Source: Ostreococcus lucimarinus (lineage: Eukaryota). Taken from it: a DNA stretch of 64,000 nucleotides. Of the stretch, positions 3,873 to 61,977 are shown in pieces; the first letter of the stretch is position 1, and every line of letters begins with the position of its first letter. The notes below the pieces were generated by a model. It had not been told where the DNA came from and did not search any database. It saw only the letters and a list, made by a program, of their open reading frames with translations. The translations under genes were made by a program, and so were the position numbers. Where the stretch lies: assembly GCA_000092065.1 (NCBI GenBank), contig CP000595.1; one strand, written 5' to 3'.

Positions 3873-3934
3873 ACCGAGGCGTCTTATTCGAAAGTAGATT
3901 ACATCTCGTCCGTTTGCGTTCGTTCGTTCATCGT

Positions 3935-5284: not shown

Positions 5285-5532
5285 TCTCCTCTCCCGGCTT
5301 CGCGTGCGGCGCCTCGGGCGGGCAGTGCCGCGCCAGCCGCGCGCGCGACTCCGCGTGGTGTCGCAGCGCGTCGCTCGGGGTGACGATGGTCGTGTCCGCG
5401 ATCGCGCGCGACATCGAGCGCGTCGAGGCGTGACGATCGATGGTCGACGCGGCGCCGATCGTCACCTCGCGACGCGAACTCCCGTCGACGACGCGCGAGC
5501 GACGCGCGACGCGACGCGCGACGACGGCGCGG
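5285..5532. promoter_or_regulatory. Putative bidirectional promoter between SNAPC3 (-) and EMC3 (+)
   Basis: Divergent gene starts ~250 bp apart; inference only. Confidence 0.25.
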
Positions 5533-6315: not shown

Positions 6316-6555
6316 AAATCCCAAAGGCTACACTCGCGTCTCCGACGCGCGCGCGCGGCGCGATCGCGAGTAATCGATGTAACTTAGTTTAACTCCATCC
6401 ATCGCGCGTCCGTCGATCGTTCGTTTGGAATCTGTCGCGTCGCGCTCCGCGTCCGCGCCTCGCGCCGTCGCTCGCGCCGCAGTCATCGACGCGCGGCGTC
6501 CGCGCGCGCGCGACGGTCGTCCGCCGTCGTCCGGCGACGCACCGTCGCGGCGTCG

Positions 6556-25890: not shown

Positions 25891-28800
25891 TTATTCGCGC
25901 GCGGTCGAGGACGAAGCGCCGCCGAAGCCGAAAAATTTGCCCAGACGGGACGCCGAGGAGGCGGCTTCGGCGCGCTCGCGATCGGCTCGGCTGGGAGCGC
26001 GCGCGAACGCGCGAGGTCGGGCGACGCTTTCGTCGTCGACGACGGTCGTGGTGACCTTGCGGACTCGAGCGATGCGCTCGCGCTCGGGCTTTGGCGGCGG
26101 TGGCGAAGATGGGGTGAAAGCGCGTGGTTTGGCGATGGGCGCGTCGTCGTCGACGCGCCTCTTGGTCACCTTGCGAACGCGAGCGACGCGTTGGCGTTGC
26201 GCCTTCTCAATTTTGGGTTTGGTGAACGCCGGAGCGGACGGGTAGTCCTCATCGTCGATGTCATCGTCGAGTGCTTCGTCGGGGAAGCACTCGGCGCAGT
26301 AGACGTTGCCGTCTGGACCGGGCATGACGTCCTCCGGTTCCATCTCACGCGAGCAGTTCGGACACTCGAAGGGCGCCGGCGCCTTGGACGAAGCTTGTCT
26401 TGGCGCTTCGTCCATCTCAGGTTCTTCCTCGGGTACGCACCGCGGGCAGTAATCCTTCCCGCCTGGACCCGTGATGATATCGTTCAACGTACACGGTGCG
26501 TCGCAATTCGGACACGTGGGGATTGAGCGTTTTCGCTGTGGCGACCAACATTTCGGACAGAATTGCCCACCGTCGACCTTGATGACGTCTTCGGGCTCGC
26601 ACGGCGTCTCGCAGTTCGGGCACACGAACGGCTCCGGCGCGCAACGCGGGCAGTGTTTCTTGCCGTCGACGTCGCTGATCGCGACTTCTTCGGGCTCGCA
26701 CGGCGTCTCGCAGTTCGGGCACACGAACGGCTCCGGCGCGCAACGCGGGCAGTGTTTCTTGCCGTCGACGTCGCTGATCGCGACTTCTTCGGGCTCGCAC
26801 GGCGTCTCGCAGTTCGGGCACACGAACGGCTCCGGCGCGCAACGCGGGCAGTGTTTCTTGCCGTCGACGTCGCTGATCGCGACTTCTTCGGGCTCGCACG
26901 GCGTCTCGCAGTTCGGGCACACGAACGGCTCCGGCGCGCAACGCGGGCAGTGTTTCTTGCCGTCGACGTCGCTGATCGCGACTTCTTCGGGCTCGCACGG
27001 CGTCTCGCAGTTCGGGCACACGAACGGCTCCGGCGCGCAACGCGGGCAGTGTTTCTTGCCGTCGACGTCGCTGATCGCGACTTCTTCGGGCTCGCACGGC
27101 GTCTCGCAGTTCGGGCACACGAACGGCTCCGGCGCGCAACGCGGGCAGTGTTTCTTGCCGTCGACGTCGCTGATCGCGACTTCTTCGGGCTCGCACGGCG
27201 TCTCGCAGTTCGGGCACACGAACGGCTCCGGCGCGCAACGCGGGCAGTGTTTCTTGCCGTCGACGTCGCTGATCGCGACTTCTTCGGGCTCGCACGGCGT
27301 CTCGCAGTTCGGGCACACGAACGGCTCGTCTTCCGGTACATCCTCCCGCAAGCACTCGTTGCAATATTCCAAATCATCCGGACCGATGACGATTTTATTC
27401 GGCGGCTCTACGGTGATTCCGCAATTTGGACAGTTGACATCCTTTTTGCGAGGACAATTTGGCGCTTCATGATCCGTCATACCGCAGATGGAGCAGCGCG
27501 AATCCGGCATGACGAGGTTCTTGCGCGCCAACTCATCGCTCGGCTCTTCGAGCACCGCATGCACACTCGGCGACTCCGCGAGCGGTTTTCTCTCTTGTGC
27601 TTGTTTGAATTGTGCTTGAAGCGCTTCCGATGGCTTTACGGTTGGATTCGCGCGGAAGCAGAAATCGCCAAACGCGAGCATAAACTTCTTCGCGTCCAGC
27701 CGGCTCCCTTGGCAGCACAAGTACCCGTCAGGTTTTTCATCGATGGCGTGCACCCAGCCATGTCGAGCGCCGTGGTACACCCAATCAGGAGTCGACGTTG
27801 AGAAATCGCTGTAGGTTCGGAAGACCAATTCACCAAACTTGTTCAATGGACTCTCGGCACCGACGGCCCACATTGTTGCAGCCTTGAACTCCATCACTCC
27901 CATGCCATCCTTGTCGGTGAAAGCCTTGTACACAGTGCTCACAGCGCGGATGTCCTCGTCAGACGATTTGCCTTGCTTCTTCATAGCCGTCGCAAATCTC
28001 GCTTGTGCTTCGTATGCTTCGACGATATGATGCGCCTTAGGGCGAAGTATGCGTTCAATCAGCCAGCGCGTTGCGCGAGCGACGCCTCTATCTGTCAATG
28101 GCACGCGATGACCGTAGATGATCCAAGCCATGAAGACGAGGGAAGTGAGGAATTCATCCAGGTGCATTCCCCAAGCGTGCTTGATACGCAGCTCCAACCT
28201 CGGACCTTCGCTCGGACATAGCGATCCTTCAACTGAGCCAGTCTCTCGATCGAGTGTGAGACACTTGGCGAGAAGCTCGGGCGCCTTGACGGTATCGAAT
28301 ACCGATCGAACGACGGCTGAGAGCTGATTGTACTGCGAGTTCGGTAGTTTGTCCTCAATCTTGCAACTCGAGATGAGGTACATGAACTGACGGTAAGACA
28401 TGAGCAAGTGATCATCCGCACCGACGCGCGTTTCGTTGTCACTCGGACCAGACGGAATCGACGCGTATGTTTTGAACAAACCCTCCAAAAATGTCCAGTG
28501 ATTGCGAATCTCGCTCCAGACGTAATAGTTGCCATCTTCGGGCTCGAAAGAAGTCAGCACATGGTTCGGTTTGCTGATACCCTTGCGAGTAAGCGGAGCG
28601 GCATCTTGGATGAGCTCCTTACCATTGTTGCGGTAACGCAGAATCGTTCGTTCAAGAGGTTTTGAATTGCTGTCCGCAAGCATTCTGCGCAAGTCGAGCA
28701 CCGTCATTTCCGGATTTTCGTGAACAAGATTAGATTGGAGCACCGGTTGCGCCAACACTGGCCCTTCTTCAATATCCGGTCGAGCGTACATTCGTTCATC

Positions 28801-31800
28801 TTCATCGGGATCCCTTGCCTCTTCTGGGTCATCTTGAAGAATCAACCACGCTGTCGTCTTGGCCAAATTACCGCGGCGGTTCTCGAGCTGCACCTCCGCC
28901 TTCCATTGAAGATTCTCGAGCTTCACTGTGTTGTGAGTGTCGAGCAGCTTGCCTTTGTGCGAGATATCAAATTTACTTCCAGTGACAGCAGGAAGCTCGT
29001 CTTCACCTGCGAACTCGCCCCGATCGCGCATGTCTCGCAATTCTGTGGCGAGCTTGGTGTGAACGCTTGAGACTTCCTCCTTGAGACGAACGGGGACGTA
29101 CACGTTCCATCCTAAATCTCTCGATCGATCCGGGTCTTCTTCCTGAATGATGATGGTTTCTCTCGTACGGAAGTGTCGTTCTCGCTCTTGTTTAATTCGC
29201 GACACCTCTTCGTCGTCTTGCTGGATGACGACGTACAAGTTGCCGTGACGAGCGCAGCGCTCTCCGGGCTCGCATTCGCAGAGGCAACAGAAATCGTCGT
29301 AGACGTCGTCGAGGTCAAGGTGCCACGGCAACACGTCACCGTCTTCATCCTGCGCCTCTGCTTTCGCTTTTGCGAGACTTTCATCGTAAGCATCCCAATC
29401 AGGGTGAATATCACCAAAGTAACCCTGGAACCGAACAAAGTGCGTGCGTCCACTGACTTCGGATGTTTGGAAAAAGAGCTCCTCTTGGTCCAAGTCTGCC
29501 GCGTCGTTCACATCCGTTTGAAAGGCTCTTCGAACGTTGTCAGCTTGTTGAAGTACCTCATACTCAGCGAGTTGCTTCTCTTCGTCCTCCTTCTCTTTCT
29601 CTTGCGTAGCGTGCGACTTCGCACGGGCGAGAGTGGAGTCTCGAAGTAAAAAGCGTTCGACCGACGGGTTGTGAGCGCCTGAGACGCCGCGTAAATCTTT
29701 TTGAGCCTGTCTGTAAAACTTGCGATAGAAGTTGTATCTCTTTTGAATCATCTTATTCTCGATGAAGAGTTGCACTTGTCGATTCATGTCCCGATTGTCC
29801 ACCGCCGCGGCGCGAATCAGGCTTTGACGCACCGGGCGCGAGAGCATCTTGTAGAAAGATTTGGCTCTGTCGTCATGGGTACCCAGAATGGTCTCCACAG
29901 TCTTGTGTCGCCAGAGCGAGCGAATTCCTCGAGCGAATTCCATTCGCAGGTGCATGTCGAAATTACCACTGAAATACAATCCTTGATCACCTTCCGCGGA
30001 CTCAAGCTGAAGAATCGCGCCCGCACTGGGGTTGAGCAGCGAAAGTGTCGGTTTCCATTCGACCCACTTGCGTTCGCGTAGCCACTGCGATGAGCGGTGC
30101 TCACTCACGACAATACTGATGACACGAGCGATAAAATTCTTGTAGGCCCGTCGAAGGTGCCAGTCAGCTCTCTTGAACCATTCCGCGCTGCTATAGGCTT
30201 CGTAAAAAATCCCTGCGCAGAAAACAAAGACAGCCACCGCAATGGTTTGCCACACGGCATTTCTGGCGTTGTCCTTTGTCCTTTGGTTGATGATGTACGA
30301 CACCGGCGCTATTGAAATGACTGAAAGCATCAGTACGAGCACCATGGCGAGCAAATGTAAGCCAAGATACCGTTTTGCTTCGCTCGTTTTAAAAGGTCGC
30401 AAAATGACGGTCGCGAACGACACAGATATTACGAGTAGAGCGGTGAGCGCCTGCACGACACCGTTGCCATTTCTGAGCTCGTAGCCTAGAAGTTGAATCA
30501 AGCACAACGCCAATATTCGTGCCATCTCGTTCACACGATACCAAACGTAGTCATCTGTGAACTGGAACGTTGCAAATCCAATCAAATCTCGTTTCCACAG
30601 CTTTTCCCATCCTCCCATGGCGTACTTTATTACCCAATACATGATGGCAAAGAAACCGATCGGGTACAGAAGCAGGGCGATCAAGGCGAGCGGGAACAGC
30701 TGTTGCCATTTCGTGCTTCCAGTCGTCGATGAGAAATATCCGAATCGCAAGTTCGGCTGCGCACGAATGTACCCAAACTTGTCCGTCACTGAACGATGAA
30801 ATATGAAAAAGTCAAATGTCGCGATGATGACGGCGACATAAGTAATTTGAATGACGTTCAAAATACTTCGAAGCATTAAAACCCATCGCCTTTGACCGTT
30901 GCGAACCACCTCGACACTCGGCTGCGTTTTGATGTAAAATTTACCCCAAATGTAGGCGTACAGCTGTGCGATGCCGTACATCAGCGCAAGTCCAATCGCC
31001 GGCATGGCCATTAATGAGTTCCAGCGTGCCACAAAATCGTATTCAGTCAAACATTCGAGGCCGATGACTTCGGGGTTGAGCTGCAGTATGTAGCATAGCT
31101 GTAGCAGCAAAGTCAAGCCGGGATAATCGTTCCAGCCAAGATTGTATCTCCCAATAATCCCAACTTCTTGCAGAAACACAACGAGCGATAATATACGACA
31201 ATAGACGATGTATCGAAAGCTCTGCTCGTCGATGAGCCAGGGCATCAAAATCGCCGAAAGCATCACCAAGCCGACGCCCGCACCATACAGCGTGTGCCCC
31301 AAAGCAGATCCGCACTTCAAACACTGACCATTGAGACGGTAGTAGCCCGTAACACACGTCTCACACGCGTCGTGAACATATCCCTCTGCGCACTGCACGG
31401 CATCCGCACTCGATCCGCCCGCGGCGATGGCGTCCACTTGCGCCGAGCCAGCGATGCCTTTCACACCGGGACACGCCTTATGGGGGAAGCACTGTCGCAT
31501 GGAGATGGGTTGCTTGTACGAGCGCGTTTCAGGAGACACGACGTAGAAACCAGGCTGCGGATAAGGCACCGTGAGATTCGTCTCAGCACAATACGTCCAA
31601 CGTTCGGGCGCTCCGTAGGAGTCGCTGTACTCTGGGCAAGGAAAGCAATATCCCGGCACGCCGTACCAACCGATGTTGCAGAAACATTGGTCCCTTGACG
31701 TTGCGCCTTGAACAGAGGTACTCCCAGCGGGACATGAAATGCAAGTTTCAAGTCCCGGGGTGTCGGAATAATACCCATTGCTGCATCGGGTACAGAAGCC

Positions 31801-34800
31801 TCGTTGCACGGTTCCGCCAGCCATACCCACCGGGCAGGCACGACAGGTGTGCGAGTTGATGGCGTCGGTGACTTGACCAAGCGGACAAATCGTGCACGTG
31901 CCGTAAGTCTTTGCGTTTGACGCATCACCAACGGCGCTTGCTGACTCTGTTGTGTAACCTAGCGCACAACCAACATGAATATTCAATGTTGCCTCCGCAC
32001 TCACCAGGCTGCCGTCGTCGACTACGCGAATCGCGTACTTCTCTAAAGGATTCTGCCGAACCAACGTGGTCGACGGAAAGAATCCGTAGAGTAATGGCGG
32101 CGCCAAATAATAAAGCGTGATCGATGTCCCGTTGTTCAGCAGACCAACCTGATCGAGCGTTGCTGCCGTAATTTCGTCCACCGGTCGTCCAAATCTGTCG
32201 ATTGATTTGTACCATCGACCTCTCCTACGCGTCGCCCAATCGCTTTGTGTGACGATCGGTTTCCACGTCAAGAAAAGTCTAAAGTATGGACCAGCGTCGA
32301 CGTCGTAAGGCGAAAACGTAATCGGGGTCAAATCTGCATCTCCTAAGTCATCCGCCGCTCGGTCTCTATTCATCACCGCGTTCACCTCCATGTTTGCCAA
32401 AAATGGGGGGTCATTCACAGGTCTGATCGTCACGTTGACTGAGGCGGACGCCGCGAGAGTCGAGTCGTAACTGGACACGATAGAGAACTCAATACTGTCG
32501 GTCCCGGTGAAATTCGCGCTCGGCGTATAGTTGAAGTACTGAAAATTGAGATTTCCGTCATCAGTGTTGACAGAACAATTCCACCAATACTGCACCTCCA
32601 CGTCATTGCACAGCTTTGTCACGGTGCCATTCTGCACGCCCGCATTCGTTACGGTGTAAGTTAAAGTGCCGGCATACTCCGAAGCCATGATCGTTCGCCC
32701 GAATCGACCCGTCATTGTCGTATCTTCATCCACCCAATAGTGCGAGACTACGCCGACGGGCTTTCCGGTGGCGGATCCGACGGCTACGACGACGCTGGCC
32801 ACGTCGTACAAAGTCGTATCGGGCGTGTTATCCAAACTGTCATCCACACTGTAAATGAAATAATCATACCCAGTAAAATTAATGTCTGGTATATACTCGA
32901 ACGTCGACGAATAAGCGACGGGACCGGCCGGAAGCTCGAGGGTTCCGTGCGCCGGCTGTTGACGAATTGTCCACGTGAGTCTGTCGCCGTCGATATCAGT
33001 CGCCGTCATAGGGCGGCTCAACTTGCTGCCCGTCGCGGTCGCATCAACCTGCGTACGCATTGGAATAATATCAGCCGTTGACTCGTAGCTCAATATTTGC
33101 TCACCGCCCGCGGCGACTGGTGCGTCGTTGCGTTTCGCGATATCCACTCGCGCCTCCTTGATATCCGTCGTGCAGCTATTGTCGTACAACGCCAGCACGG
33201 CGGGACTACAATCGACTGTGCCATCGGTGTCGAGACCGAGCGCTTGTGCGACGGTATATTCAACCGTTCCGCGAAAGGTGAATACGTCTACGCCGTTTTC
33301 ATTCGGTTTGGGTTGATACGACACGACGCCGTATCCGGCGTTCATCTCGACTTGGAAAGTAGCCTCGACTGCTTTCCGAGGATCACAGACGGTGAATATG
33401 TTCGCCACAAACGGAATACCCGAGCGACTCGTGAACAAAGGGAGCTCTCGCTGCCAGAGAGGCCCATCTTCGTACGTGTAAAAGTTGACTACGTTTCCGG
33501 ACGAGTTGCTCGTCACCGCCAACTGCGTCGCGTACGTCACCGTAATCGATTCTAATGCTAGTATGTCCGTCGGTATGTGTCCTACTTGATCTGCGCCGAT
33601 GAACGTGGAGTCCGTCCCGAACGTTGCATTCGTGTTCACCGTGTTTTGCGCGTTCAGTAAATCAATCCATGCCGCTGGTGGCGGTGGTGGATACGCAGGC
33701 GACGGCGGCGGGCTGGGTGGCGGTGGGAACGGTGGCGGACTAAAGGGCGTGGGTGATGGTGGCGGCGGTGGTGATGGAATCCCCGAATCATTCTTTCTAT
33801 CCCACGACCAAGTCGACGCACAGAGCGATAACGAAAGTATGAAGAAGAAATACAGGCAGAAGATGATGACGTTGTCGCTGAAGATGTAACGCAAGCGCTT
33901 CAGTGCCTTCTTCTTTGACGTGTACTTGTGCGTCTCATGGTTGCCGCGAAGCTTCAGGTGCACGTGACACGTCTGTGCAACGTTGATTCCATCGCCTAAG
34001 CGCCAACCAGGATCGACGAGACATCCCAAATAGAACAAATCCACGCTGTCCGGATCCGGCTGATGTTTCAAGCGCCGACAAACCATTCGCTTCACCTTTT
34101 GGAAGTTGTCCGTCAACTTGCAAGTCAAGCTAATGGTCTGCATCTCGTTCACGTCATCGATGTTTCGCATGAAAAGTGAATCTCGCAACCGCACGATAGT
34201 GGGCAATCGGACCACCACGGTGCACGTCGGGTCTGGATGTCCTGAAATCGCCGCGATGATCGCGGCCGATAAGTACATGCCTAGGAAAAACAACAGCAAC
34301 CCCAGGAACACCAAAAACCCATCGTCTCTGCTCTCTACCGGACACTTCGTCGTATCCGCTGGCGCTATCACGCATTGTCCGGCGTTCAGCGACCCCGATG
34401 GACATTCAATGTAACTATACGGGCAACAGCCCGTCTTGTTCGTGTTCAACAACGCGTCCGGATAAGGATAACTCACCAAAGATTGCGACAGGCACGAGCA
34501 TGACTCTCCGGCGAACCCTAAATCGCACACACACGTGCCATCTCGCTCGGAGCAATAGCCGTTACCGTTGCAATCCACCGACGGCGAACACGAAAATTTG
34601 CACCGATTGTCCCCGACGCCCACCCATCCTCGATCGCACACGCAATCCTTCGCCGTGGCGTCCCACGTCCCGTGTCCATTACACGCGTCCCGACCGTTGT
34701 TCGTCGTGGTGTTGAACTGGCACAGACTACCCGTGAAGGCATCAGGGCAAATGCACTCCTTGCTCGTCGCCGCGCACACGCCGTTATTCTCGCACCCGCA

Positions 34801-35631
34801 CGTTGCGCACCCATCCCCAGTCATCGCCCCCACGCACGTCGGCGTCGGCGCACTGTACGTCCAATTATACGCACACGTTCTACACGGTCCGTTATACACG
34901 CTTCCGCTCATGCACGTCGACGACGCCGCGCACCATCCGCAGCCGTCCGCTTTCGCGCAGTGCTCCGCGTTCCCAATCGCCGCGCACCTCGGATCGCACG
35001 GTATCTCAATCTCATTCGTCACCGCGTTCACCACTCGCGGCGCGTTCATCACCGGCGGCAAATGCGACACGCACAGCGCGGCGTCGAGCAAGGAGTAGCA
35101 CGTCGGGTTGTGTCCGTCCACGTCGCGCGAGTCGCACCACCCGCACCCGACCTCCTGCACGCACTCCCCGAACACCGCCCGTCGCTGGCACCGCAGCGGG
35201 CTCACGATGCTCTCATCGCTCGCGTTCCACGCCGTGAGCGCGTCGTCGTGCGCCGCCTCGGTCGTTCGCACGCCGAGCGCGCGTCGCGCGTCGCGCGCGC
35301 GCGCGCCCCGAGCGCCCGCGGCTTCGCTTCCCGGCGCGCTCGCGCTCGAGCGCGGGCTCGGCGCGAGCGCGAACAGCGCGAGGGCGACGCGAACGAGCGT
35401 TCGCAATCGCGCGTCGCGCGCGCGATCGCCGACGCGCATGGCGCCGCGTTCTGCGGTCGACGCATCCGCGGTGCCGTTCAAATCGAGGGTGTTACGCCCT
35501 ATAAATATACGTGATACCTTAAAAACACACACACTACTAGGGTTTAACGCAGACCAAACGTTTATTTCAAACGCGGTCGAACGCGGTCGGCCGCGCGCGC
35601 GCGCGTCGCTCGCACAACTCCGCGCGCGCAT
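25891..35631 (-). CDS. Giant multidomain membrane protein (3,246-aa ORF; probable start Met at 35439): signal peptide, PSI and EGF-like repeats, TM, Pro-rich segment, cadherin-like region (PVNDPP), ephrin-receptor-like Cys repeats, multi-pass TM module, large cytoplasmic region, C-terminal zinc-ribbon array
   Basis: 9.7-kb stop-free frame. PSI-type C..C......CGWC blocks ([14 protein letters not shown]; [16 protein letters not shown]). EGF blocks ([25 protein letters not shown]). Cys repeats CTICPLGQ...[11 protein letters not shown]...[11 protein letters not shown]...[10 protein letters not shown]. Hydrophobic module [17 protein letters not shown] ... [16 protein letters not shown] ... Repeated [33 protein letters not shown] zinc ribbons. 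Domain calls are by motif recall. Internal introns cannot be excluded. Confidence 0.75.
26584..27328. repeat. Perfect tandem repeat, 99-bp unit x ~7.5 copies, inside the coding region of the 3,246-aa gene (encodes 33-aa CPNC...CPRC zinc-ribbon units); flanked by degenerate copies (~26280-27480)
   Basis: Unit gacttcttcgggctcgcacggcgtctcgcagttcgggcacacgaacggctccggcgcgcaacgcgggcagtgtttcttgccgtcgacgtcgctgatcgc recurs with 100% identity starting at 26683, 26782, 26881, 26980, 27079 and 27178. A 5'-variant copy lies at 26584 and a partial copy at 27277-27328. The + ORFs 26471..27472 and 26563..27801 are repeat artefacts. Confidence 0.95.
30100..31300 (-). other. Multi-pass transmembrane module of the 3,246-aa protein, paralogous to the TM module of the 7,684-aa neighbour
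   Basis: [36 protein letters not shown] and [16 protein letters not shown] (minus strand) align with LAVADLQILGLDCVSTWDYFTRFATTMFAPFVWVFVLG and LYPVGLFLAAFGWLYVH of the + strand giant protein. Confidence 0.6.
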
Positions 35632-35729
35632 CGCCGCGCCCCGAACGCGCGAGCGTCGCGCGACGCGGCGCGATCGGCGCGCGCGCGATGTCGACGCGGC
35701 GCGTCGACGCGCGCGCGACGACGACGACG

Positions 35730-35760
<31 letters not shown>

Positions 35761-35777
35761 AGGTGTTGGACGACGCG
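35440..35777. promoter_or_regulatory. Putative shared bidirectional promoter / 5' leaders of the divergent giant gene pair, containing a (GAC)n microsatellite (35715-35770)
   Basis: Probable signal-peptide start Mets are at 35439 (-) and 35778 (+). gacgacgacgacgacgacgacgacgacg is directly visible. Inference from gene arrangement. Confidence 0.35.
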
Positions 35778-38700
35778 ATGGCGACGGCGACGGCGCCGAC
35801 GCCGACGCGAAGCGCGCGAACGCCGAGCGCGTGGACGCGGACGGCGATGATCGCGATCGCGCTCTTCGCGGCGCTCGGCGGCGCGACGCCGGGCCGCGCG
35901 GCGTTCACGGCGGACGTGTGTTACGGCGCGTCGTGGGAGCCGACGGCGACGGCGACGAAGGCGTCCATAGGGAAAACCGTCAAACCGGTCACCGCGGTGC
36001 CGAAAGAGCACCCGCTGTTCGTGGACGCGTTCGCGAAGGCGTGCTTGGACGTGGGGAACGCGGCGGGGAACACGTCGGCGGCGACGACGGTGCGATTGCC
36101 GAAGCGGACGAACGCGGGGAACGAGACCTATTGGTCGAACGCGGCGGGGGCGTGCGCGACGTCGCCGACGGTGAGCGCGGGACAGTTGTTTTATAATCGA
36201 GCGGAGATGGGATCGACGTTGTCGTACGCGGATTCGAACACGGGACTGGAGAAGGATAAGACGGTTAGGATTGTGTTCGTGAACGACGACGGAAAGGGCG
36301 CGCACGTGGTGGTGTTGGCGGGCGCGAGGGCGGCGACGGGGTCGAGCTCTCCCGAGGTTGGGCTGATGATGGAGGGTGGTTCGTTGAAAAACTCGGCGAA
36401 CGTGGTGATAGAGGAACCTCGGGGATTGACGAACGTGGTGACGAGTGGAAGCGGATGCGACCCGTCGGTTTCGTCGGCGAGCGATTGCTACGAGTTGGAC
36501 ACGGATTTGGGTCTTGGCAAGTTTCGCTGGGGATCGGGATCGGATCAACGCGGTATCGTCATCGGCCACGTCGCCGATGTGAACTCAGAGTTTGCGATGA
36601 AGTTCACGCTGCTCGAACGCATCGATTCGGTGGAGATTGGGTCGTTTGACGACGCGACGTTTGCGATGTCGTGGGAGACGATTCCGACGGCGAGCGCGTT
36701 GAGAGGTTTCAAGATTCGCAGCGCAACTTGCACGAATCACTGCGCTTTGCACGCAACGTGCGCGTCGTGCGCCACGGATGACGCGTGCGGGTACTGCTCG
36801 GCGACGAAGACGTGCACGAAGATTGATGGTTCGTGCTCGAGCGGCTTCGACGTCATCGGCGAGTGCCTCGATACGTGCGGCGCGGCGTTGACGTGCGGCG
36901 AGTGCGCCGATCAGAGCGGATGTGGGTGGTGCCACACCACTGGTCGGTGTACCGCGGCGCAGCTCGACGGTAGTGCTCCGCAAGATGGTAATTGCTCCGC
37001 GTTTAGCGTGGGATCGAGCGCACAGTGCGCCACGTGTCCGGGCGCCGTCACCTCAACTATGTTGCCCGCTTACGTAGATGTCGACCGCGTCAGCGCGTTT
37101 TGCAACGGCAGGGGGACGTGTGATAACATCACGCGCACGTGTACGTGCTCGAGCGGTTACGGTGGAGACGGATGCGAGAAGATGTGCCCCGGCGGCGCGA
37201 GCAATCCGTGCTCGAGAAACGGTTTATGCGACTCGGCGTCGGGAAGTTGCTTCTGTAATCCTGGCTACGTCGGCTCGCGATGTAACGCCGCCACGATAGT
37301 CGGGACGTGCGAATGTGGCTCAGCGCACACATACTTGAAGTCGGACGGCACGCAGCAGCGCGTGTGCTCTGGTCGTCTCGATTCGAGCGGCTCGTGCGTG
37401 TGCCTCGAGGGATGGTCGGGTGTAAACTGCACCGTCGCGTGCGCCGGCACCTTGACCGTCGGCACCGAGGTGTGTGGTGGACACGGTACGTGCAATGTTG
37501 GAACCGGTCAGTGCGATTGTGAGCCGTGTTATTCGCGGGACGCCACTTCAGGGCTTTGCGTGCAAGACACTTGCTCAACGTGCGACTCTAGCAATGGAGT
37601 GTGTTCGTGCGTGAGCGGAAGTATGCAATGCGCCTGTCGGGGCGCCTTCGATGGGTACGCGTGCGATCAGTGCAAGTGTGGCGACCACGGTCGTTGCAAC
37701 GCACTCTCGGGCGAGTGCGAGTGCGACGCAGGATACGCTGGCGAGCTCTGTGAGCGACTCATTGAGCCGCAGCCGACGTGCGCCAACGGCGGCACCTGGA
37801 ACGCGGCCCTCAAGCGATGCGAGTGCGCGGGCGGATACACGGGCACTCTTTGCGATGCAGCGTGCACGACGAACCCGTGTAATGATCTTTGCAGTGGGCA
37901 TGGTACCGTGAACGTCGATGGGACCTCGTGTACGTGTTTCACTGGATTCTCGGGGAGCACTTGCAACACTTGCGCCACAGGCTACGGCCCGTATCCCAAG
38001 TGCGGCGCGACGCTTGCAAACGGAGAATGTACAGATAATATCGTAGCTTACACTGGGACCACAAACGTGACGATTTCGGGCAAACAGTGCCAGTCGTGGT
38101 CGTCCCAATCGCCGTTCGCGCACACGTACGCGTCGTCTTCGGGATCGACGAGCAATGAGTGTCGTAATCCGTCGTCTGACGCGCACCCGTGGTGCTACGT
38201 CGATCACACCGCCATCACCGGGTCGTACACCCGAGGCGAACCTCGATGGGAGTTTTGTTCAGTACCGACGTGTAAGTCGGCATACGTCAACCCACAGAAG
38301 ATTTGTGGCGTTTTCGGTGGTGAAACAGTCGTGACGTTTGACAAGGACTCCACCTCGGGAGCGCTCAACGCTGTCAGCCAACAGGCGCTGACGACGACGA
38401 ACGACGCAGTGGACAAGACGAACTGTGGCGCAATGAATCTGACTAATAACGATATCACCTTGCACGCGAACGCCGCGGCGCATGGAGACTTTGTCGCTCG
38501 GTTCGCCGAAGACTCCGGCACGGGTTATGCGAGACGCATCATCACGCACATCGGTCTCAAAGCATCCGTTTCGCCGGCGCACGATAGCGTCGAAGTGCAC
38601 GCCGATGGCACCGTGAAAGTCAACAGTGTTACCAAAACGAATGATCTGCCATACTCCGACGGCTCCACTGGTGTTTTGTGCGTGTCTGACTGGATGCCCG

Positions 38701-41700
38701 TGAGCTCGGGCTTGGCGAGCACGGAGCTTTTACAAATAACGATTTCAGAGACGACGGTGGCAAACATCACCAAGTTTACCGCTTGCACGGGATGCGCGGC
38801 GCAGCTCATCGTGGTCATAAGTGTCCCAAATAGTGTTACATCGACAGGCATATGCGCCACGGCGGGCTCGGCGACCAGCGTAAACTTCGACGAGAACGCA
38901 GAAGGAAGCGCGCCGTGGGGCGTCGGCGCGGCGCTCAACGCCGCTTGCGGGACCGACACGCACGACCCTGGTAGCGTCTCAACGGTGCAAGCGAAGTGGT
39001 GCGACCAGTGCCAGTATCTGGGTGAAGTGTACGATTCGTGCGTCGCTCAGATGGCGAACGAAGGGTTCAACTTTGCCCGCGCCGCCGTAATAGAGGGCTG
39101 TCGCATGGCGTTTGTGGCAATCTACGGATACGACCGCACGATTCCCTCATATCTCACGGCGACGGCGTCGACGGGCGCCACATTAGCGGACACCGTGTAC
39201 CCGTATAGAAGCTACACTCCGTCTGATGTGCAGTTTAAGTCACTCTCCGACAATCGCTTAGCTTTTGACGTGCTAGACGTCACGGAAACCTTGCCGGAAT
39301 ACATCGTCGGTACGACGAGAACGGATGGGTCGCGCACGCGAATGACTGGTTTGCCACGAGAGTTTACAGGCGAGACCGATACGACGCAAGTGTTCCCGTT
39401 CCCTAGAATTGAAGACTCGTGCAGAACCGCGAGTGATATAGGATCAACATCTGGGTATCGCGTGTACACTATGAATTACGCTTCGGCGACGGATGAAGCT
39501 CTGGAGATTACGATGTGCGGCTCCGCCACGGGAACCAACGTGGGCGTCTACACAAAAGACTTTGTAGACATCCCGTCGGCGGATTGGACGCACAATACTA
39601 CAAGTGCGAATGGGAATATCACTTTCACATTCACCCCGTGGATCGATGGCTTGGCCACGTATGAGGCTCGTTTCGAGTACTCTTTGGCGTCCACCAAGAA
39701 AAACGTGACGTTTGACGTCACTCGCACCTCTGCAAACGTCAACATTGGCTCGTTTGAATTCTACCCGCCGACGGCGTCGGATTCGTACGGCTCTGTTGGC
39801 TTTGAGTTTAGCGTTCCCAGTGCGGAAGCCGCCGCCACGGTTTCGTTCACAATGTCACCCACTGGCACTGGTGACTCAACGGCGGCGAACTCTGCGTTTA
39901 TCTCGCTTACCGCGGTTTTCATTCACGCGAAGAACTACGCGCAAGCGAGTTTGAATTACCCGCCATTCGGTGGGTTCAAGCAAGTCTCGTGCGCCAACTT
40001 CCAAGCGGCATCCTGTGGGTCGCTGAAGTTCACGGCGACGCAAAAGACATATTACATCGTCGTCTCTGGACAAAAATTCGTCTCGGGGGCGTACAGCATG
40101 CAAATAAAAAAGTTGAGCGCGGATTTGACAACCGTGTACACGGTGAGCAGCAACGCAGCGACGTCTTTGGTGAGGCCGTTGACGGGATTGGATGGCGCAG
40201 CCGATGGCACGTTGACGCCGTACAAGGTGGCAAAGTATGGCGATAATATTCGCGTCGTCGTGCGCGCGTCGCACGCAATAGATAGACCAAGAATCACGTT
40301 GGGCAATTACGCGGTTCCGAGCTCGAAGATTGTCTCTGCAGGTGCCGGCGCGGAGTATTCAGCGACGGTGACCGTCAGCGCTAGCATGGCGACTTCTGGA
40401 CACATCACGGTAAAGGTTGAGCAGGCGAGTACGCTCACCTCAGCATCGTATGGGTTTAAGACGTCCACTCATCCGTTGGGTTCTGACATCGCGCTCGTCG
40501 TGTTGGACAACACCGCGCCTACTGTCAGTCACGCCTGGGTCGTCAATCCATCCTACATGCTCGCGCCGTCGTCGGCGCCATCGTCCTGTACGAATCTTAC
40601 GACGTCCACGGGTAAGGATGTAAACGTTACGGCGGCAAAGTACGCAAAAGCGGGAGATTACATCGCCGTCATCTTTACGCCGTCGGAAAACGTCGCCACC
40701 ATCGGCGGTACCATCGGCGGTCAAGCTGCGACGAAATGGGTGCGAGCAACCGCGCCGCGCGACGTCACGCTCGCGATCGATGCTTATAAAATCACGATGT
40801 CCGCGGCCTACGTCGATGCCGCGTACGCGCTCGTCAATGACATCACACTCAGCGATGGAGTTTTACCGTTTTCCATTACGTTTACGGACGCCGTTGGCAA
40901 CGTCGGGACGACAATTAACTCGGCGATCAACTCCCTGACCGGTGTCACCGCGAGTTCACCTTTGGCCGATCGACTCAGCGCCGCTCGATTATTGTATGAT
41001 AAGTCACCACCGCGACCGGACTCATGGTCACTGAGGTACGCTAGTTCTTCGGAGATGACTGGGAACCAAGGTTCCAAGCCAGTGTATTATCACGGCTTTG
41101 ACAACGTGGCCTCGAGCGCCAAAGAGTATCGCATCGGTGACACGCTCGTATTAACTGGCACTTGGACCGAATATGTCTCTCGTCCGTACGGCGCGTACAT
41201 GCGCTCGAGCGCTTCAAGTGGCGTGCACGTTCCGCAATCAGCCATTACGATCACGGAGCAAGGCGGAAAACTCACCGGCAAGTTGGAGTGCATGGCGAAG
41301 GAGTTCCGTCCGCGAGCGCAAGAAGCCGTGAGCACCGCGCAAGGTTTCGGTGGAACCAGTTACGTGACATCGACATATCACAAATCATGGAAAGTGGAAG
41401 CGAACACGATCGATCCATGTGATATCGTCGGTAAAGGTGCGTTGGCGTGGAGCGCTCGCGCGGATTGCCAAGCGGAGCACTACGCCGGGAACTCGTTGTG
41501 GATTCCTCTCTGGTCTGCGTGGTGTCGTCACGGTTGGGGTACCTTGGGTTACGCCGTACTCGGAGGCGTCGACCCCGCTGGTAATTCGGCGACGGCGTTG
41601 CGCCAAGTGAGCAAATCTCCGAACAACGCCGACGCTACAGTTGTGATTGCCTCGTCCGCGGTGGCGGGCGACGCGATTATTCGCACGCCGATTCCCATCG

Positions 41701-44700
41701 CCGGGAAGATTGTGCCAAGCTGGATGAACTCAGTCCCTAGAGGTGACTGGACCGCAGACCCGAAGGTGATTGAAGTGTACATCGAGCCGCAAAACGTGAG
41801 ATGGAACGAGTATAGGCGCGTCGTCAAGGTTGGCGACATGCTGCAGATTCAATTCTACACTGACCAACCGGTGAAGGGCGTGCGCGCGCTCATCGGAGAC
41901 GATAAAGCCCTTCCGCCTGCGACACATTCCGAAGTCGCGAGCGCCATGAACGTCGAGCGACCGTGCTCAAGCGATCCGGACATGCAAACTTGGCTCGGCG
42001 CGCGCGGCTTGCTCGCGCTCGCCGCCGAAGAGTACAACGACGGATCGCAGTTTTCGAACGACGACGATTGGTTCGATTGGTTGGTTCAGACGTCTTACAA
42101 CTATCGCCAACCCGTGCCCAATGTGCCGAATTACCCCAACGCCGCTGTTACGTGCACTGGATTCTGGGTCCAACGCGGGTTACGACCCAACGGTAAGCGT
42201 TATTCGGTGCGCCGTTTGTGCCCGAATAGGTACTACTTGCGACGAAGCTCGTTCGCCGCTCAGGCGCCGCTTACGTGCTCGGATCCAAATGATCGAATCT
42301 ACAAAGCCACAGACGCGTACAACTATTGGGTGATCAACTTTAGATACGTCACATCGCATCAAGTCGTCAATGGCGACGGAGCGCTTCAAATCAAGTGGCA
42401 GTTGACCACGATGGACGACCGCGTGTTGCCGACGGGTGGCGGTTGGCAGACCTCTGCAGCCTTCTTCACCTCTGCGGACACCTCTGCGGATGTCAATCAT
42501 CTCAAACCAACGTCAACTGATGCCGTCGGCGCTGCGTTTGATCCCGCGATTAGCTGCGGGCGCAACGCGGATACCGCGTTCAATCAAGCCGGGTCGGCAG
42601 TCTGGGCCGTCCAAGATACGCTGGCGCCTTCGTGCGCGAGCTTTGTCACGGATGGTTCGTGCGCGAGCACGACTGTCGCCCGTGTCGCTAACAGTAGCGG
42701 TACGACGTTCCCCACCGTCACGAATCCGGCGACCAATGTCGCCGAGCACGTGGCCGTCGTTGGTGATTATATCACGCTCATCATCACTTTTGACGAGCAT
42801 ATTGCAGCTGGAGTGTACGTGACTTTGAACGACGGGGTTCTCACCGCTCGAGCGACGAAAGTTGACAAGTACTCGGCGACGTTCACCTTTGAGGTGACGC
42901 AGACGCTCGCGGCTCTGAATACGTTTTTGGAGTACAAAGTGTACAATCTGAAGGATATTCAGGAAGCGAACACGGCGACGGCGACGTTTACGACGAACGT
43001 CTTCAACGCTGAAAAGATTCGGTTGCAAAGCGCGAGCGAATTGACGGCGTTTTCGCTCACCAATGGCGCGTGCTCAACCACTAGTAACAACGTGAATAAT
43101 CAGTACGCCAAAAATGGGAATACAGTCAACGTCTCAGTGACGCTGCCGCTGCCACCGAGTAGCGCCAACACCGTGCTGACCATCCACGAATCCAAACTTG
43201 CGGGCGTCTACGTCACGCCGCCGACGCCCACATGCGTGGGTACACCGAATGCGTGCACGATAACCATGGCGCGTACGGTTGACAGTCTCTCAGCGGACTT
43301 CGTCGATGGTAGCGTCGTGTCTTGGTCACTGGTGGTTATCGGTACGACCAAGTGTGCGCACCACGCTTCAAGCTTGTGCATCACACGCTTCAAGCTCACG
43401 TCGTGTCGCCCGACGTTTGCGTCTGAAGTCGTCTTGGATTTTACGCCGCCGTCTCTGACTTCGGTGCGTTTGAGCGAGCCTGTCACCTCAGCCTCGCTCG
43501 TCAATGGCACTGGTCAAGTGAAAGTTGACGTCGTATCGAGCGAACAATTGTATACGCTGACGTACACATTGGATACGCGAGGCCCCCTGTGCACGTACGA
43601 CTTTGGCATGGTCTCCGCCCAGTCGATGACGTTGACGACGGATGGTACTCTCACGGGTACGCACACAAAAACCATCACCGCCACGTATAACTCCGCATCG
43701 CTTCATTGCGTGCTCGAAGTCATCTGTATCACGTTTGTCGGCGAAGATATGGCTGGACACAAGCTCACGAATCCGACGACGTGTCGAAGCTTTTCTCCGA
43801 CGGATTCCGAAGACTATCCAGGATGGTTCATGCTTCACAACGTCGGCACGGGCCCAAGTTCTGTCTCGCTCGCCCGACCTCTCGGGTTACACTGCATGGA
43901 TAGTTCCGTGGACACGCAGGCATGCGCTAACAGCGCAAGCGTGACTTCGACGACGCTCGAGTACGGGAATTATCTCGCTCTCGACGTGTCGTCGGGGTAC
44001 CCTATCGGCATTACTGACATTTCCGTGGACGGCCATTCCGTCTACGCGGCGACTGGCTTTGGCTCGTCTACGTTCCAAAATGATAACGCGTGGACGATCG
44101 ATTGCTCTGATTTGGTTCGCGACGACTTGTGCGTGCGCTTTGCCACGAGCGCGACGTGCCAGGCGTACTTATGCCCGACGTGCCAGTACGCCGGTATGTG
44201 TGACTTTTCGTGCGGCTACTGCGATAGCCGTCGAGCCTTCTCGAAAACTCACAAACTAACGCTGAAGACGACCGATTTCGGATTACCCGCGACCGATTTC
44301 ACTAACGAAGTCGTCACAGTTTCGTATCGAACGAATCCGGCGATTGCGCCGGCGGCGACGATGAACTCGACGGATACTCTTACGTACACGGCGCCCACGA
44401 CGAGTTCGTGTGCTGGTCGATGTGGAGGTACAGCGCCATCTGGCTGCGAATGCAACCCGACTTGCAAATCTCGGGGCACGTGCTGCGCTGATGCCGGCCA
44501 CTGTTGTACCGTCGGTTTGCCGTCCACAGGCGCTCTCAACGTCGACGGTGGATGTCTTCGACCAAACGCCGTGACGCTCAGCGTCACCAAAGAGTCTTGG
44601 GGGGTGGACACGAAAGGCGTGCGAAAATCTAACGTTAACCGATACTCCACGATTTACATTAAACTGACTGGAAACAAGCCGATTGACGTGCGACGTGTGC

Positions 44701-47700
44701 TCATCGGTGGCGTCCTTGTTCCAGATTCGGACGTCGCCATCGAGTACAACTCGCAGACGTCCGCGCGACAGTCTCTCAACGAAGCGCTCGTGGCGTACGG
44801 CAACGGCAATGATGCTCAGTTCACGTCGAAGAGTGCAGCGTTCGCGGGGAGTCTAGCGACCCTCCCAAGCGCTGCCTATTCGTGGGATGGCAATGAGTTT
44901 TCAATAGCGTTCCCGGACATTCCAAGTACGCTCGTCGCCACCATTCGCGTCAACGGCGCAAACCTGGTTCCGCAACCTGACGGCGCGTTGACGTATGAGG
45001 TAGTGTACCGCGAACGTTCGGGTGCGCCTTACTTTACGGACAACACCGAGCTCACCCTCACCGGAACTGGTCCGACGTGGTTGAATCCGCCGTCCATCTC
45101 AAGTGTCTCTTACGTTCTCTTGAACAGCAGCTCGACCTGCGACTTGTCCACTCCGGGCACACCGGTGACCGCGGCAGGCAACGGTTTGACAAAGATTGAA
45201 ATCGGTCATCAACTCCGAACCGTAGTGACGTTCAGTTCGCCGGTCGTCGTTCGCAAGTGGACCGTGGAAGGTGCGGAAACAAATTGCTACGGCACGTGTC
45301 ATCTCCACGGATTGTGCAAACTTGACCCGCACATTTTGCCGCCCGACGAACACGATGAAGCTGAATACATCACCACCTGGACGAGCTGCCGTACTTTCGA
45401 TGCCAAAGAAATGACCACACTCGAGAATCTTGAATGTGGTGTTCGCGAATTCATTCGCGCCGTCGACAGGTCAGGTAACCTCGTCATGGGTGAGCGATGG
45501 AACAACTTGTATTGCTTCACATTGCCGCCGGCGATTCCGAGTCAAGGTTTGATAAAAGTACGCGGTCTAACGTCTTGCTACCGAAGTACGACGACGAAAA
45601 AGTTTGGCCCAGGTTGTATCGCTACCATCCACATCGAAGCCGACGGCGAAATCATGGAGCCAACGGTGAAGTGGTGGAACACAGCGACCAACGCGTACGC
45701 AAACTTTCCTTCTGCGTGCGTCATGACGGCGACGGATCCGACGTCTCCAAGCTCGTTGGTTTGGACACTCACATGTGCGGGTACAGCCGCGGCGACATTC
45801 CCACCCAGTAACTCTTACACGTTACAGCTTGAAGTCAGCGACGTGCGAGCCACGGACGAGTCAACCTTTACGGGCACGGCGCGAGACACGGACGACGGAT
45901 ACCTAGGCTCAGACAAGGACCCGATCATCGTCGATAACCTCGCACCCACGCCGACTGCCACTGTCCCGCTTTCGTGTGCGTTAGTCATAGGAAGCCAATC
46001 TACGATAACCGTCACGTATGCGGTGGAACCATCATGGCGCCCGACTGTGAGCGCGTTTGGCGCGCAGGTTGGCGGCGTCATTGCGCAAACCGGCGCGTTG
46101 AGCGGATTTCACACCGTTTGGATTGCACCGATCACAGTCCCCTCCGACTGGTTAGGCGGTAGCCCGATGCCTTTCGTGATTACGAACGGCGAGGATGAGT
46201 ACGGCAACATCGACACGACGTCGCACGGGAACTACTTGTCCAATGACAACGTGCTCACTGGGGATGTGAATTGTTCAGTGAATGTCGATGCGCCGCGAGT
46301 CACGTCTGCGACGTGCGCTAGCCCGTCACCGAGGGTCGTCAAACCAGGCGGAAGTGTGACGGTTGATTTCTCCACCAATGTTGCAGTGACGATTCCGTCG
46401 GGTTGCGTCAAGATTTCCGGTGTCACGGTGACGCCCACGGATCTGGGAGGCTCGAAAAAGAGCTGGAGAGCCACGGCGACCATTCCGTCAGACCCCCCCG
46501 CTTGCGACGGCGAAGTCGCTCTCAGCATCTGTGCTGAAATCACCGATACCGGAAATAACACCGGCGTTGAAGTAGTAACGCAGTTTTTTGGCCCCGAAAG
46601 CGAAGCTTGTCTCATCGACGGCACAGCGCCGGTGCTACAGTTGATTGATTTCACCAGCGACAACACGTACGATTCAAAACTGGCCACCGTCGGTGACACT
46701 GTTCGACTGTACTTTGAAGCGAGCGAAATGATCACCGCGCCTACAATTACGCTATTCGCGACCGCAACGCCGTCTGCAACGGCGGTTGAAACATCGGGAC
46801 CGAGTCGTCGACGATTCCCATCGACGGTGCTTAATGCAGGAGGAACGCAGTACGCGACAATATGGACGGCTGAATACGTCGTCGACGGGACCACGCCGGT
46901 AGGCGCGCTCACATGGGATGCGACTGGATTCATGGATCGCGCGACGAATGATGGCACTAAAAGTGCGTGCGCGGATTGGAACCCGCCATCTTGTTCAATC
47001 GTGCACGCTGCGCAGACGACTGCGCAACGAGCTCTCGAACCAAGTATCAACTTTGTCGGCGACGTCGTTCAAACGTTCAACAACTTTTTGACGACGTCAC
47101 CGAGCGGTAACGTGTCCACACTGTTTTCGTGCTACGCCAACTCATCATCGACATCGCTGTCGGCGTTAAATCTGGCAATCTTGAAGACAGATTTGTCGCG
47201 GCACGATATCGTCGCTGGTGGGATATTCCAACATCATCTCATGACGGCTCAAGATTTGTGGTGGCAACGCGGTGGCGCGTGTGGCACCGCCAATGGTCTC
47301 ATGTGTCGGTCGACATGCGGACGGTGTAACGATGCCGCCGTCGTGGTACACCGCACGACAACCACGCTCACTGTTGCAAACGTCACCGCCGGTGGTACCG
47401 CCATTCCGGGAGACCAATGTCCAGGAGGTGTGGGTACGTGCATGTGCAACCCAACGCTCGGCGATCAATCCGAAGCCCGCTATATCGTGAGCACCTCGGC
47501 CCGCGATCTTGTCTCGAAACCAACCATCAGATTTAACGACACTAGCGGCACGGTGTATACCGTACCCGAGGCCAACATCGTGGCGGTGAGTCCTGTCATG
47601 TGGCCCACGCTCCCGACGGTGGATTGTCTGTCCGAATCGACGGTGCGCGACGGCGTCTGCGACCCATCCGCCACGTTGAACAATCGCGACGGATGCTGGG

Positions 47701-58742: not shown

Positions 58743-58902
58743 TCGTCATCAAACAAAGTTCAATTATTAATTTACCCCACTAGCGGCGCTTGGGATCACG
58801 ACATTAGCGCCTTGATCCTTGTTATAACGCACCACAGTTATACCGCGCCGACGCGCCGCACACGCCGCCTCGCTCGACGCACCCGATGGCGTGAATCCCG
58901 GA

Positions 58903-61900: not shown

Positions 61901-61977
61901 ATGCCGCGCGATTGCGCGCGTCGAGAGACGTCGCGGACGTCGTCAGTCGATTGTGCGAAGGCATGCGATTAGAGTAG
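58903..61977 (+). CDS. NRPS-like single-module protein: adenylation (AMP-binding) domain + peptidyl-carrier (thiolation) domain fused to ankyrin repeats and armadillo-like repeats
   Basis: Adenylation core motifs: YTSGTTGKCKG (A3), NVYGATETT (A5), GEVAIGGICVADGYLN (A6), YLTGDRG (A7), GRLDRQVKIRGHRVELDEIE (A8), PLTSSGKTNR (A10). Carrier motif DAFDALGGTSLNVLAVS (LGGxS). Ankyrin-type repeats (ATHVAAARGNSEMLEMLLAAGA; TICHLAVRSGDVSTV; TPAAWALVAGSSEILAELRDAGANL). ARM-like C-terminus (IRELVCANAENREKARTIGLVPKLCELA...AIGALRNLA). Start at ATG 58903; the track start is a GTG. Confidence 0.8.
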   Translation: MSPPTLDAALRRNARERPSAIACVLVPNAREKNRKCFFTWDELHGVVDALARVLRADRHPRVLSFCRDGVEAFVALHACARARKSLVNVDAATPASRIRDVARDANATTCLCANDGDEDSVKSVLGEDGVAVRVWEVINAGAEAIEAEEDETREDDEIWIAYTSGTTGKCKGAAATHRRAMAYARAKCEVEEIDACSRVCLASNATFDLWHGDACAAAAAGAAVVVASRATFQHDFARVLREGEVTHVCCTPTMFSLARLPRGIVDAPKLRCVSLAGERMRESTIALWADDVALYNVYGATETTVVQTYARMRNAEDESTNRAGKAYEGFASVFVVDEMREGELAVQSFAQRRGVEGEVAIGGICVADGYLNDPERTARAFVHSPFGTVYLTGDRGYIDDAGDLYLRGRLDRQVKIRGHRVELDEIEAALRSCPALCDDAVVFYDANEGVLTSHARAASPTFDASSDADLYAFALERVVELRLPRHMVPRRHVFIEHARWPLTSSGKTNRQILLQWFASGETKAFRPKREKPQAGLETVVANAWAVALGHGDASDIGALDAFDALGGTSLNVLAVSKALASDDGIVRSRDTARGEIVREARIGLRDGEAAALLNDGEEPAACAFDVIDGPFAPCEIFARPVLRDYVDYLRAQGIDADVNAPASTAVEPQRDTSANRRMLAACGRGVAPVVRALLATGVEASGEHLRAAAASLADEAVDVVQTLLAAGADASSSSATAGTLATHVAAARGNSEMLEMLLAAGAPAGAKDADKQTICHLAVRSGDVSTVRVAANACKHLKTRKGGLESWDRWKRTPAAWALVAGSSEILAELRDAGANLTSLETDVSNAWVHGSLSAKSEVQLAHRPVRKRGAAAEVLSALAARLDAANVESERIEAATAIRELVCANAENREKARTIGLVPKLCELARDRHCVEAIGALRNLATNTSAAGAAGDAGAMEILGDVIRARAKLKDSELSADDRRVVYAAASAMRALAVKHDANAARLRASRDVADVVSRLCEGMRLE

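Follow-up and report, generated by a model that had tools for sequence, protein, structure and literature searches.

What kind of protein opens with PSI, EGF-like and Kringle modules in the genome of a green picoalga, where an initial annotation, made from the sequence alone, had singled them out as modules best known from animals? The question is raised by a 64,000-nt stretch of the Ostreococcus lucimarinus contig CP000595.1 (assembly GCA_000092065.1; hereafter, the window, to which all positions refer), in which one exceptionally long open reading frame (ORF), referred to below as the giant gene and its product as the giant, carries these modules at its N-terminus and stands head-to-head with a shorter divergent paralogue. 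The module cassette, or head, probably forms the membrane-distal end of a very large multipass receptor at the cell surface, of the kind known as cysteine repeat modular proteins (CRMPs). The window as a whole looks like that of a green alga, as the initial annotation had surmised, and includes genes for glucan-water dikinase, RB, ALS and Vps41.

From its N-terminus, the giant comprises a putative signal peptide, an N-terminal domain (N-domain), two PSI modules, eight EGF-like repeats, a Kringle and a stalk of ~5,000 aa without a Pfam match, followed by cadherin-like/Big_9 domains, ephrin-receptor-like repeats, a core of nine transmembrane segments (9-TM core), an S1-S4 voltage sensor without a pore and a cytosolic tail (Table 1). 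The cassette had been placed at 36700-38300, which fits the mapped modules (36729-38273, plus strand), and Pfam matches locate the cadherin-like/Big_9 and ephrin-receptor-like repeats further along the same ORF, as had been described. The 9-TM core and the C-terminal voltage sensor are additions to that first description. Translation probably starts at Met31 or Met54 (nt 35778 or 35847); the tblastn alignments with orthologues start at aa 70-72.

The PSI-EGF-Kringle head

The modules of the head were assigned by Pfam scans of isolated segments, of overlapping 400-aa pieces and of a 1,500-aa piece. The Kringle (PF00051) scored 55.8 bits as an isolated segment (E 5.9e-15, cut-off 34.3) and 52.0 bits within a 400-aa piece, and phmmer aligned it with PDB chains of plasminogen K1-K5, hepatocyte growth factor (HGF), apolipoprotein(a), prothrombin and ROR1/2. 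In the alignment with plasminogen K1-K5, its six cysteines (C781, C801, C825, C836, C857 and C862) all stay in register, as does the CRNP...PWC core, and an insertion of ~9 residues between the fourth and fifth cysteines is also kept in the orthologues. The PSI profile (PF01437) matched two stretches of the isolated segment with 27.4 bits, above the gathering cut-off of 23.1; the only PDB matches of this segment (phmmer) are the PSI domains of plexin-C1 and plexin-A4, both weak (E 0.1-0.18), and every cysteine of PSI-1 is kept in the orthologues. Profile searches, to which the initial annotation had entrusted the fate of its Kringle and PSI assignments, hence back both of them. The EGF-like repeats had been called laminin/tenascin-type, a label of which one half stands: the isolated segment matched EGF_Teneurin with 54 bits in seven stretches and EGF_2 with 29 bits, whereas the eight-cysteine laminin EGF profile (EGF_laminin, PF00053) stayed below its threshold (20.2 bits, cut-off 21). 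The length of the query matters, as hmmscan of the Cys-rich 1,500-aa piece (window 35688-40187) reports neither Kringle nor PSI, and the short segments give both; we attribute this difference to a filter effect, and a negative scan of the whole protein would therefore mislead.

Canonical lysine-binding kringles rely on D55/D57, K35/R71, W62, F/Y64 and W72 in plasminogen numbering. The corresponding residues of the algal Kringle, in an alignment with K4, are S55, D57, Y35, R71, W62, Y64, W72 and F74; the aromatic trough is complete and each charged pair is half present.

Upstream of the first PSI, the N-domain matches zero Pfam families even at E<=1. It is kept in the MMETSP protein P0002 (aa 20-290) and partly in the relative P0008. 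An AlphaFold2 model of the N-domain together with the PSI modules, built from a five-sequence alignment, was unusable (pLDDT 43.9).

The head is not a peculiarity of one assembly. A metagenome scan with an alignment of the N-terminal region retrieved 19 loci, among them eight at 99% identity (marine JGI metagenomes), six at ~62-68% and one at 54-56%. The orthologues at 54-68% identity sit on independent metagenome contigs, and their ORFs, 54-62% identical, are collinear with aa 70-3600 of the giant (tblastn) and open to the end of each locus. Within aa 340-880, 73 of the 74 cysteines, including all six of the Kringle, are identical in all four orthologues compared; the Kringle itself is 64-68% identical. 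Judging from these cysteines and from the retained Kringle insertion, the head cassette is under purifying selection and is kept beyond chance. More distant sequences retain it as well: in P0002 (33% identity), the N-domain is followed in the same order by two PSI modules (32.7 bits), the EGF array and the Kringle (84.9 bits), and P0008 has the N-domain, two PSI modules (31.1 bits) and EGF repeats. The cassette is thus an old conserved unit and predates the genus.

This conservation bears directly on the possibility that an animal or choanoflagellate was the recent donor, through horizontal transfer, of the head or of the Kringle alone. Such an origin would suit the best named matches of the EGF region, which are choanoflagellate 'fibrillin'-like proteins (31-33% identity), and the ~45% identity of the Kringle to those of plasminogen and HGF. 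However, the GC content at third codon positions (GC3) is 0.74 in the head and 0.69-0.78 in the neighbouring housekeeping genes, a match that argues against a recent foreign origin, and the whole cassette is common to the 33%-identical MMETSP protein and to the orthologues at 54-68% identity. Moreover, apicomplexan CRMPA proteins carry a Kringle too, and the algal Kringle is about equally distant from plasminogen, HGF, CRMPA and MMETSP kringles (pairwise identity ~36-48%), so that no recent animal donor is indicated. We therefore regard recent transfer as very improbable. The phylogenetic placement of the Kringle that had been proposed as a check yielded this equidistance and not a position, since a domain of ~80 residues with near-equal pairwise identities does not allow its placement to be resolved.

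The nine-helix core and the voltage sensor

By profile comparison, the 9-TM core of the giant is homologous to the cores of apicomplexan CRMPA and CRMPB. With the CRMP core sequences taken from the S2 Table of PMC9815656, hhalign matched the algal family to TgCRMPA, PbCRMP1 and PbCRMP2 with 99.3% probability (E 1.3e-20) over 397 columns, spanning columns 19-514 of the query, a profile that begins at aa 6690, and 15-461 of the 489 template columns. The match to TgCRMPB reached 96.8% (E 3e-10) and that of a reversed control 1.8%. The alignment shows shared motifs, and the match to CRMPA takes in the pre-TM Cys module (aa ~6708-6741), which belongs to the conserved core of CRMPs and in the giant begins in the last part of the membrane-proximal Cys-rich region. 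When the TgCRMPA core was searched against a mixed set, it matched core-bearing relatives only and not one of the 128 voltage-gated channel sequences present. With aa 6700-7449 as the query, the matches of an exhaustive HMMER search fell into two classes: four-repeat channels match the sensor only, and a smaller set matches the multipass region, including P0061, a relative of 6,608 aa, and proteins of [Myrmecia] bisecta and Cymbomonas tetramitiformis.

In the hydropathy profile, TM segments first appear at aa 6742 and cluster from there to aa 7360. An AlphaFold2 model of this region has nine long helices (pLDDT 60-85), behind which the sensor is poorly supported. A Foldseek comparison of the model with the PDB returned no match at E<=0.001, in line with the literature, according to which the structure of a CRMP has yet to be solved. 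A profile of the TM region run against PDB sequences gave only ATP synthase b-subunit matches in the loop, which were judged spurious.

The voltage sensor behind the core matches Ion_trans with 52.9 bits (cut-off 25), over profile positions 1-112 of 241 only. Its S4 carries the gating charges R7367, R7370, K7373, R7376 and K7379 in register at every third position, and phmmer against the PDB aligned the sensor with the first and third voltage-sensor domains (VSD-I and VSD-III) of Cav2.3 with ~50 bits each (total E 3e-33), including the F..E of S2, the S2-S3 linker and the Asp of S3. The 49 PDB matches at E<=1e-3 consist entirely of Cav, Nav and CatSper chains, with none from Hv1 or voltage-sensing phosphatases (VSP), and the S4 of the giant does not contain RxWRxxR, the S4 signature of Hv1. 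No S5-P-loop-S6 pore follows, since no hydrophobic segment is found after S4 either in the giant (maximum KD19 0.92) or in P0061. The latter, 28% identical, carries the same core-sensor fusion; from aa 1424 of the giant, in the stalk, through the sensor, the two proteins are collinear. The 20.6-kb contig of P0061 is barely longer than the gene and cuts it at the 5' end, so the absence of a head there is uninformative.

The ectodomain between head and membrane is mostly stalk, in which overlapping 400-aa pieces covering aa ~900-5,950 match no Pfam family. A BLAST of the giant against itself yields one weak repeat pair only; hence, the stalk is not built as a simple array of repeats. The Ig-like domains behind it match Cadherin_4 (38.3 bits) and Big_9 (28.9 and 32.0 bits), and the membrane-proximal region matches Ephrin_rec_like (46.6 bits) and TNFR_ELAPOR1 (30 bits) at aa 6548-6615.

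Given this composition, one may ask whether assembly or annotation has fused separate genes into a chimeric ORF, namely those of a Cys-rich secreted protein, of a multipass protein and of a truncated channel. The exceptional size could raise such a suspicion, as could the outcome of exact look-ups, in which neither of the two products of the gene pair had an identical counterpart and the 7,684-aa product was absent from a collection of 15 billion proteins, and the fact that gene callers fragment the giant in metagenomes. However, 23 kb run without a stop codon, the reading frame and the order of the parts are preserved over at least 3,800 N-terminal aa in independent contigs, which stem from several samples and species, and the junction of core and sensor is kept across contigs, with P0061 spanning it within its collinear stretch. 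Metagenome fragments that are 99-100% identical cover the head (P0001) and the core, sensor and tail (P0207-P0210). We consider a chimera extremely improbable.

A more serious alternative is that the giant is mainly a structural adhesion or surface-coat protein, employed for instance in cell-cell or cell-particle adhesion or in gamete recognition, whose head binds a partner and whose membrane part is a non-signalling anchor. An ectodomain of ~6,700 residues, with its Ig-like/cadherin-like modules and a stalk rich in Thr, Ser and Val, would be in keeping with this role, and Kringle, PSI and EGF are classic binding modules, as is generally known (Patthy 1984 as cited in PMC9815656). Yet, a single TM helix is enough for an anchor, and what is kept down to 28% identity is a 9-TM core with an intact sensor, complete with five in-register gating charges and with the Phe/Glu of S2 and the Asp of S3 aligned with Cav sensors. 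A purely adhesive role thus strikes us as unlikely, and a CRMP-kind receptor remains the reading that we favour.

The divergent paralogue and the surroundings of the pair

The initial annotation had noted that the neighbouring gene on the minus strand begins with the same PSI/EGF opening. The homology is borne out by BLASTP of the paralogue against the giant (E 1e-14 to 9e-18 in this region); the Pfam assignment is not, as the PSI scores 19.7 bits, under the cut-off of 23.1, and EGF_2 just exceeds its own (22.6 against 22.1). The kinship extends to the ephrin-like region and the first TM segments (E 5e-20), and Pfam also matches Big_9/Cadherin_4 and Ephrin_rec_like in the paralogue, in which we found no Kringle and no voltage sensor. 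The head-to-head pairing is kept in six contigs of related species (L012-L015, L017 and L018). Alignments with orthologues start at aa 79 of the paralogue and aa 70 of the giant, and the region between the probable true starts, with an AT-rich dip (GC 0.46 at 35460-35579), is a candidate shared promoter.

Several features of the pair and its surroundings are worth recording in their own right. The bodies of both giant genes (38400-58700 and 25900-34000) have a GC3 of 0.62-0.64, compared with 0.74 in their own heads and 0.69-0.78 in the neighbours, and this lower GC3 accounts for the low-GC blocks in the composition profile. The tail of the paralogue contains 7.5 tandem copies of a 99-bp unit (26584-27327, minus strand) that are 99% identical and encode a zinc-ribbon-like CPxC...CPxC pattern with weak DUF7686, DZR and LIM matches. 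Because the orthologous tails are only ~33-41% identical to these repeats, the comparison suggests that the copies are homogenised within species. Between the PSI/EGF opening and the remaining ectodomain of the paralogue, aa 441-606 (~33814-34309, minus strand) comprise two extra hydrophobic segments flanking a loop of ~130 aa, ubiquitin-like by eye, in which no Pfam family was detected; the coding sequence is kept in orthologues. About 17 kb upstream of the pair, a Cys-rich ORF of 698 aa (16242-18338, minus strand) with a Furin-like_2 repeat (34.5 bits) may encode another extracellular protein. The ORF next after the giant gene (58891-61977, plus strand; 1,028 aa) combines an AMP-binding (adenylating) domain with C-terminal ankyrin repeats.

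Table 1. Features of the giant gene, its paralogue and the region between them in the 64,000-nt window of O. lucimarinus
Feature	Position	Strand	Remarks
Giant ORF	35688..58742	+	7,684 aa; no internal stop over 23 kb
Putative signal peptide	35847..35903	+	MIAIALFAALGGATPGRA, then AF; read by eye from the translation
N-domain	35904..36722	+	~270 aa, probably beta-rich; family not assigned
PSI-1	36729..36866	+	aa 348-393; Pfam PSI, Cys map
PSI-2	36876..37037	+	aa 397-450; CGWC motif; better-scoring PSI stretch
Eight EGF-like repeats	37101..37973	+	aa 472-762; teneurin/tenascin type; CxC...G..G..C units
Kringle	38028..38273	+	aa 781-862, C1 to C6
Extracellular stalk	38274..53555	+	aa 863-5956, ~5,090 aa; Thr/Ala/Val/Ser-rich composition
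Cadherin_4/Big_9 Ig-like domains	53556..54599	+	aa 5957-6040 (Cadherin_4/Big_9) and aa 6208-6304 (Big_9)
Membrane-proximal Cys-rich region	55305..55892	+	aa ~6540-6735; ephrin-receptor-like and TNFR-like repeats
CRMP-type 9-TM core	55911..57362	+	aa 6742-7225; cytosolic loop of ~190 aa after TM3
Voltage-sensor domain S1-S4	57486..57854	+	aa 7267-7389; Ion_trans PF00520; no pore behind
Hydrophilic cytosolic tail	57855..58739	+	aa 7390-7684
Divergent paralogue ORF	25891..35631	-	3,246 aa; PSI/EGF opening, cadherin-like/Big_9, ephrin-receptor-like, CRMP-type core, long cytosolic tail
Paralogue PSI/EGF opening	34372-35190	-	aa ~148-420
Paralogue CRMP-type core	30202-31287	-	aa 1449-1810
Divergent intergenic region	35443..35846	.	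~400 bp, between the probable true starts of both genes

A possible mechanism and comparison with known receptors

If the giant is a CRMP-kind receptor, its N-terminus would lie outside and its C-terminus inside the cell, an arrangement in which S1 has its canonical orientation because nine TM segments precede the sensor. The disulfide-rich head would be the end that binds a ligand or makes contact, and binding would be relayed to the cytosol by way of the 9-TM core. Like Toxoplasma CRMPA with CRMPB, this core might pair with that of the neighbouring paralogue as a heterodimer, and by analogy with the Toxoplasma and Tetrahymena CRMPs the output could consist in a regulated event at the membrane, for example exocytosis or fusion, which the fused sensor would make dependent on membrane potential or able to report to it.

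Several points weigh against parts of this scheme. The exocytosis analogy with alveolates is its weakest step; extrusive organelles are not known from picoalgae of this type, and the analogy may not transfer. That the green-algal members act as contact or ligand sensors is something we infer by analogy, and the heterodimer is a candidate suggested by the adjacency of the two genes and by the Toxoplasma precedent. The lysine-binding site of the Kringle looks partly canonical (S at 55, Y at 35) and would not by itself assign a class of ligand. At the level of the family, a direct pairwise comparison of the giant with TgCRMPA gives no significant similarity, the link being made through profiles and intermediate sequences, and the ectodomain is far larger than in described CRMPs. 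Finally, Kringle and CGWC motif are both absent from all other retrieved relatives with a CRMP core; accordingly, the head is specific to its lineage, and its purpose may be a different one.

The conserved fusion of core and sensor is itself a 'Rosetta-stone' hint which suggests that CRMP signalling is tied to membrane potential or ion flux. In a bolder version, CRMP receptors would be electrically coupled, their 9-TM core, perhaps as a heterodimer, being a conductance or transducer gated jointly by contact of the head and by membrane potential. We hold this to be a long shot. If true, however, joint gating would provide the first mechanistic lead on signalling by the CRMPs that are essential for invasion in Toxoplasma and Plasmodium, and picoalgae would possess a surface system sensing both contact and voltage, for instance in the recognition of gametes, viruses or grazers. 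The picoalga Ostreococcus tauri is amenable to genetic work, gene targeting included.

The giant shares parts with three groups of well-studied membrane proteins. Like Hv1, Ci-VSP/TPTE and TMEM266/HVRP1, it has an S1-S4 sensor without S5-P-S6, followed by a cytosolic tail; unlike them, its sensor is most similar to the repeat sensors of Cav2, Cav3 and Nav channels and stands behind a 9-TM core and a 6,700-aa ectodomain rather than with a phosphatase or a coiled coil alone. With plexins, teneurins/tenascins, ROR1/2 and adhesion G protein-coupled receptors (GPCRs), the giant has types of extracellular module in common, whereas its membrane part belongs to a different family; Pfam scans of the 1,500-aa and 400-aa pieces found no Sema, IPT, YD-repeat, FN3, kinase, GAIN/GPS or family-B 7TM domain. 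Closer to home, the [Myrmecia] bisecta and Cymbomonas tetramitiformis proteins (KAK9818094.1 and KAK3279970.1), annotated only as hypothetical 'EGF-like' or 'ephrin receptor-like domain-containing', have ephrin-receptor-like repeats and the 9-TM core (23-29% identity), but neither of the two yielded a Kringle motif, a CGWC motif or a voltage sensor. Our literature searches on Kringle in prasinophytes, on CRMP with voltage and on GCC2/GCC3 in algae retrieved nothing relevant, and they turned up no CRMP-type protein in green algae, no PSI on a CRMP, no CRMP of such size and no fusion of a CRMP with a voltage sensor.

The nearest counterparts are the CRMPs of Apicomplexa. CRMPA combines Kringle, EGF-like and ephrin-receptor-like modules with nine TM segments and forms a heterodimer with the Kringle-less CRMPB (PMC9815656, PMC9670195). 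The topology of TgCRMPa, with an extracellular N-terminus and a cytosolic C-terminus, has been shown experimentally (PMC9670195); CRMPA is needed for rhoptry secretion and the Tetrahymena CRMPs for mucocyst discharge (PMC9815656, PMC9670195). Like the giant, the CRMPA clade (TgCRMPA TGGT1_261080 and Plasmodium CRMP1/CRMP2) has an N-terminal Kringle, EGF-like and ephrin-receptor-like (GCC2/GCC3) modules, a pre-TM Cys module, a homologous 9-TM core and a partner paralogue, CRMPB, without a Kringle. The MAR domain predicted for TgCRMPa and PfCRMP1 (PMC9670195) did not turn up in the giant, although no dedicated search for it was made. The giant differs from the clade in its length of 7,684 aa, in its ~5,000-aa stalk without a match, in its two PSI modules and unclassified N-domain, in its C-terminal voltage sensor, none having been described for CRMPs in PMC9815656 and PMC9670195, and in its host, which is a free-living green alga and not an alveolate.

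The combination of Kringle, EGF-like, ephrin-like and 9-TM parts is thus already known from Apicomplexa and is now seen in a green alga, whereas the PSI pair, the giant size and the fusion with a voltage sensor are new relative to the described CRMPs. The modules that had seemed odd in an alga are there as reported, but because their combination has a documented precedent, most of the surprise is resolved by a family of CRMP-like receptors. The green-algal homologues of the CRMP core extend this family and the logic of its ectodomains beyond alveolates, where Dictyostelium had been the only earlier case; the family predates parasitism, and one green-algal member has a Kringle head beside a Kringle-less partner gene. 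The modules of the head are, in this light, old and mobile extracellular modules mounted on an old protist receptor chassis.

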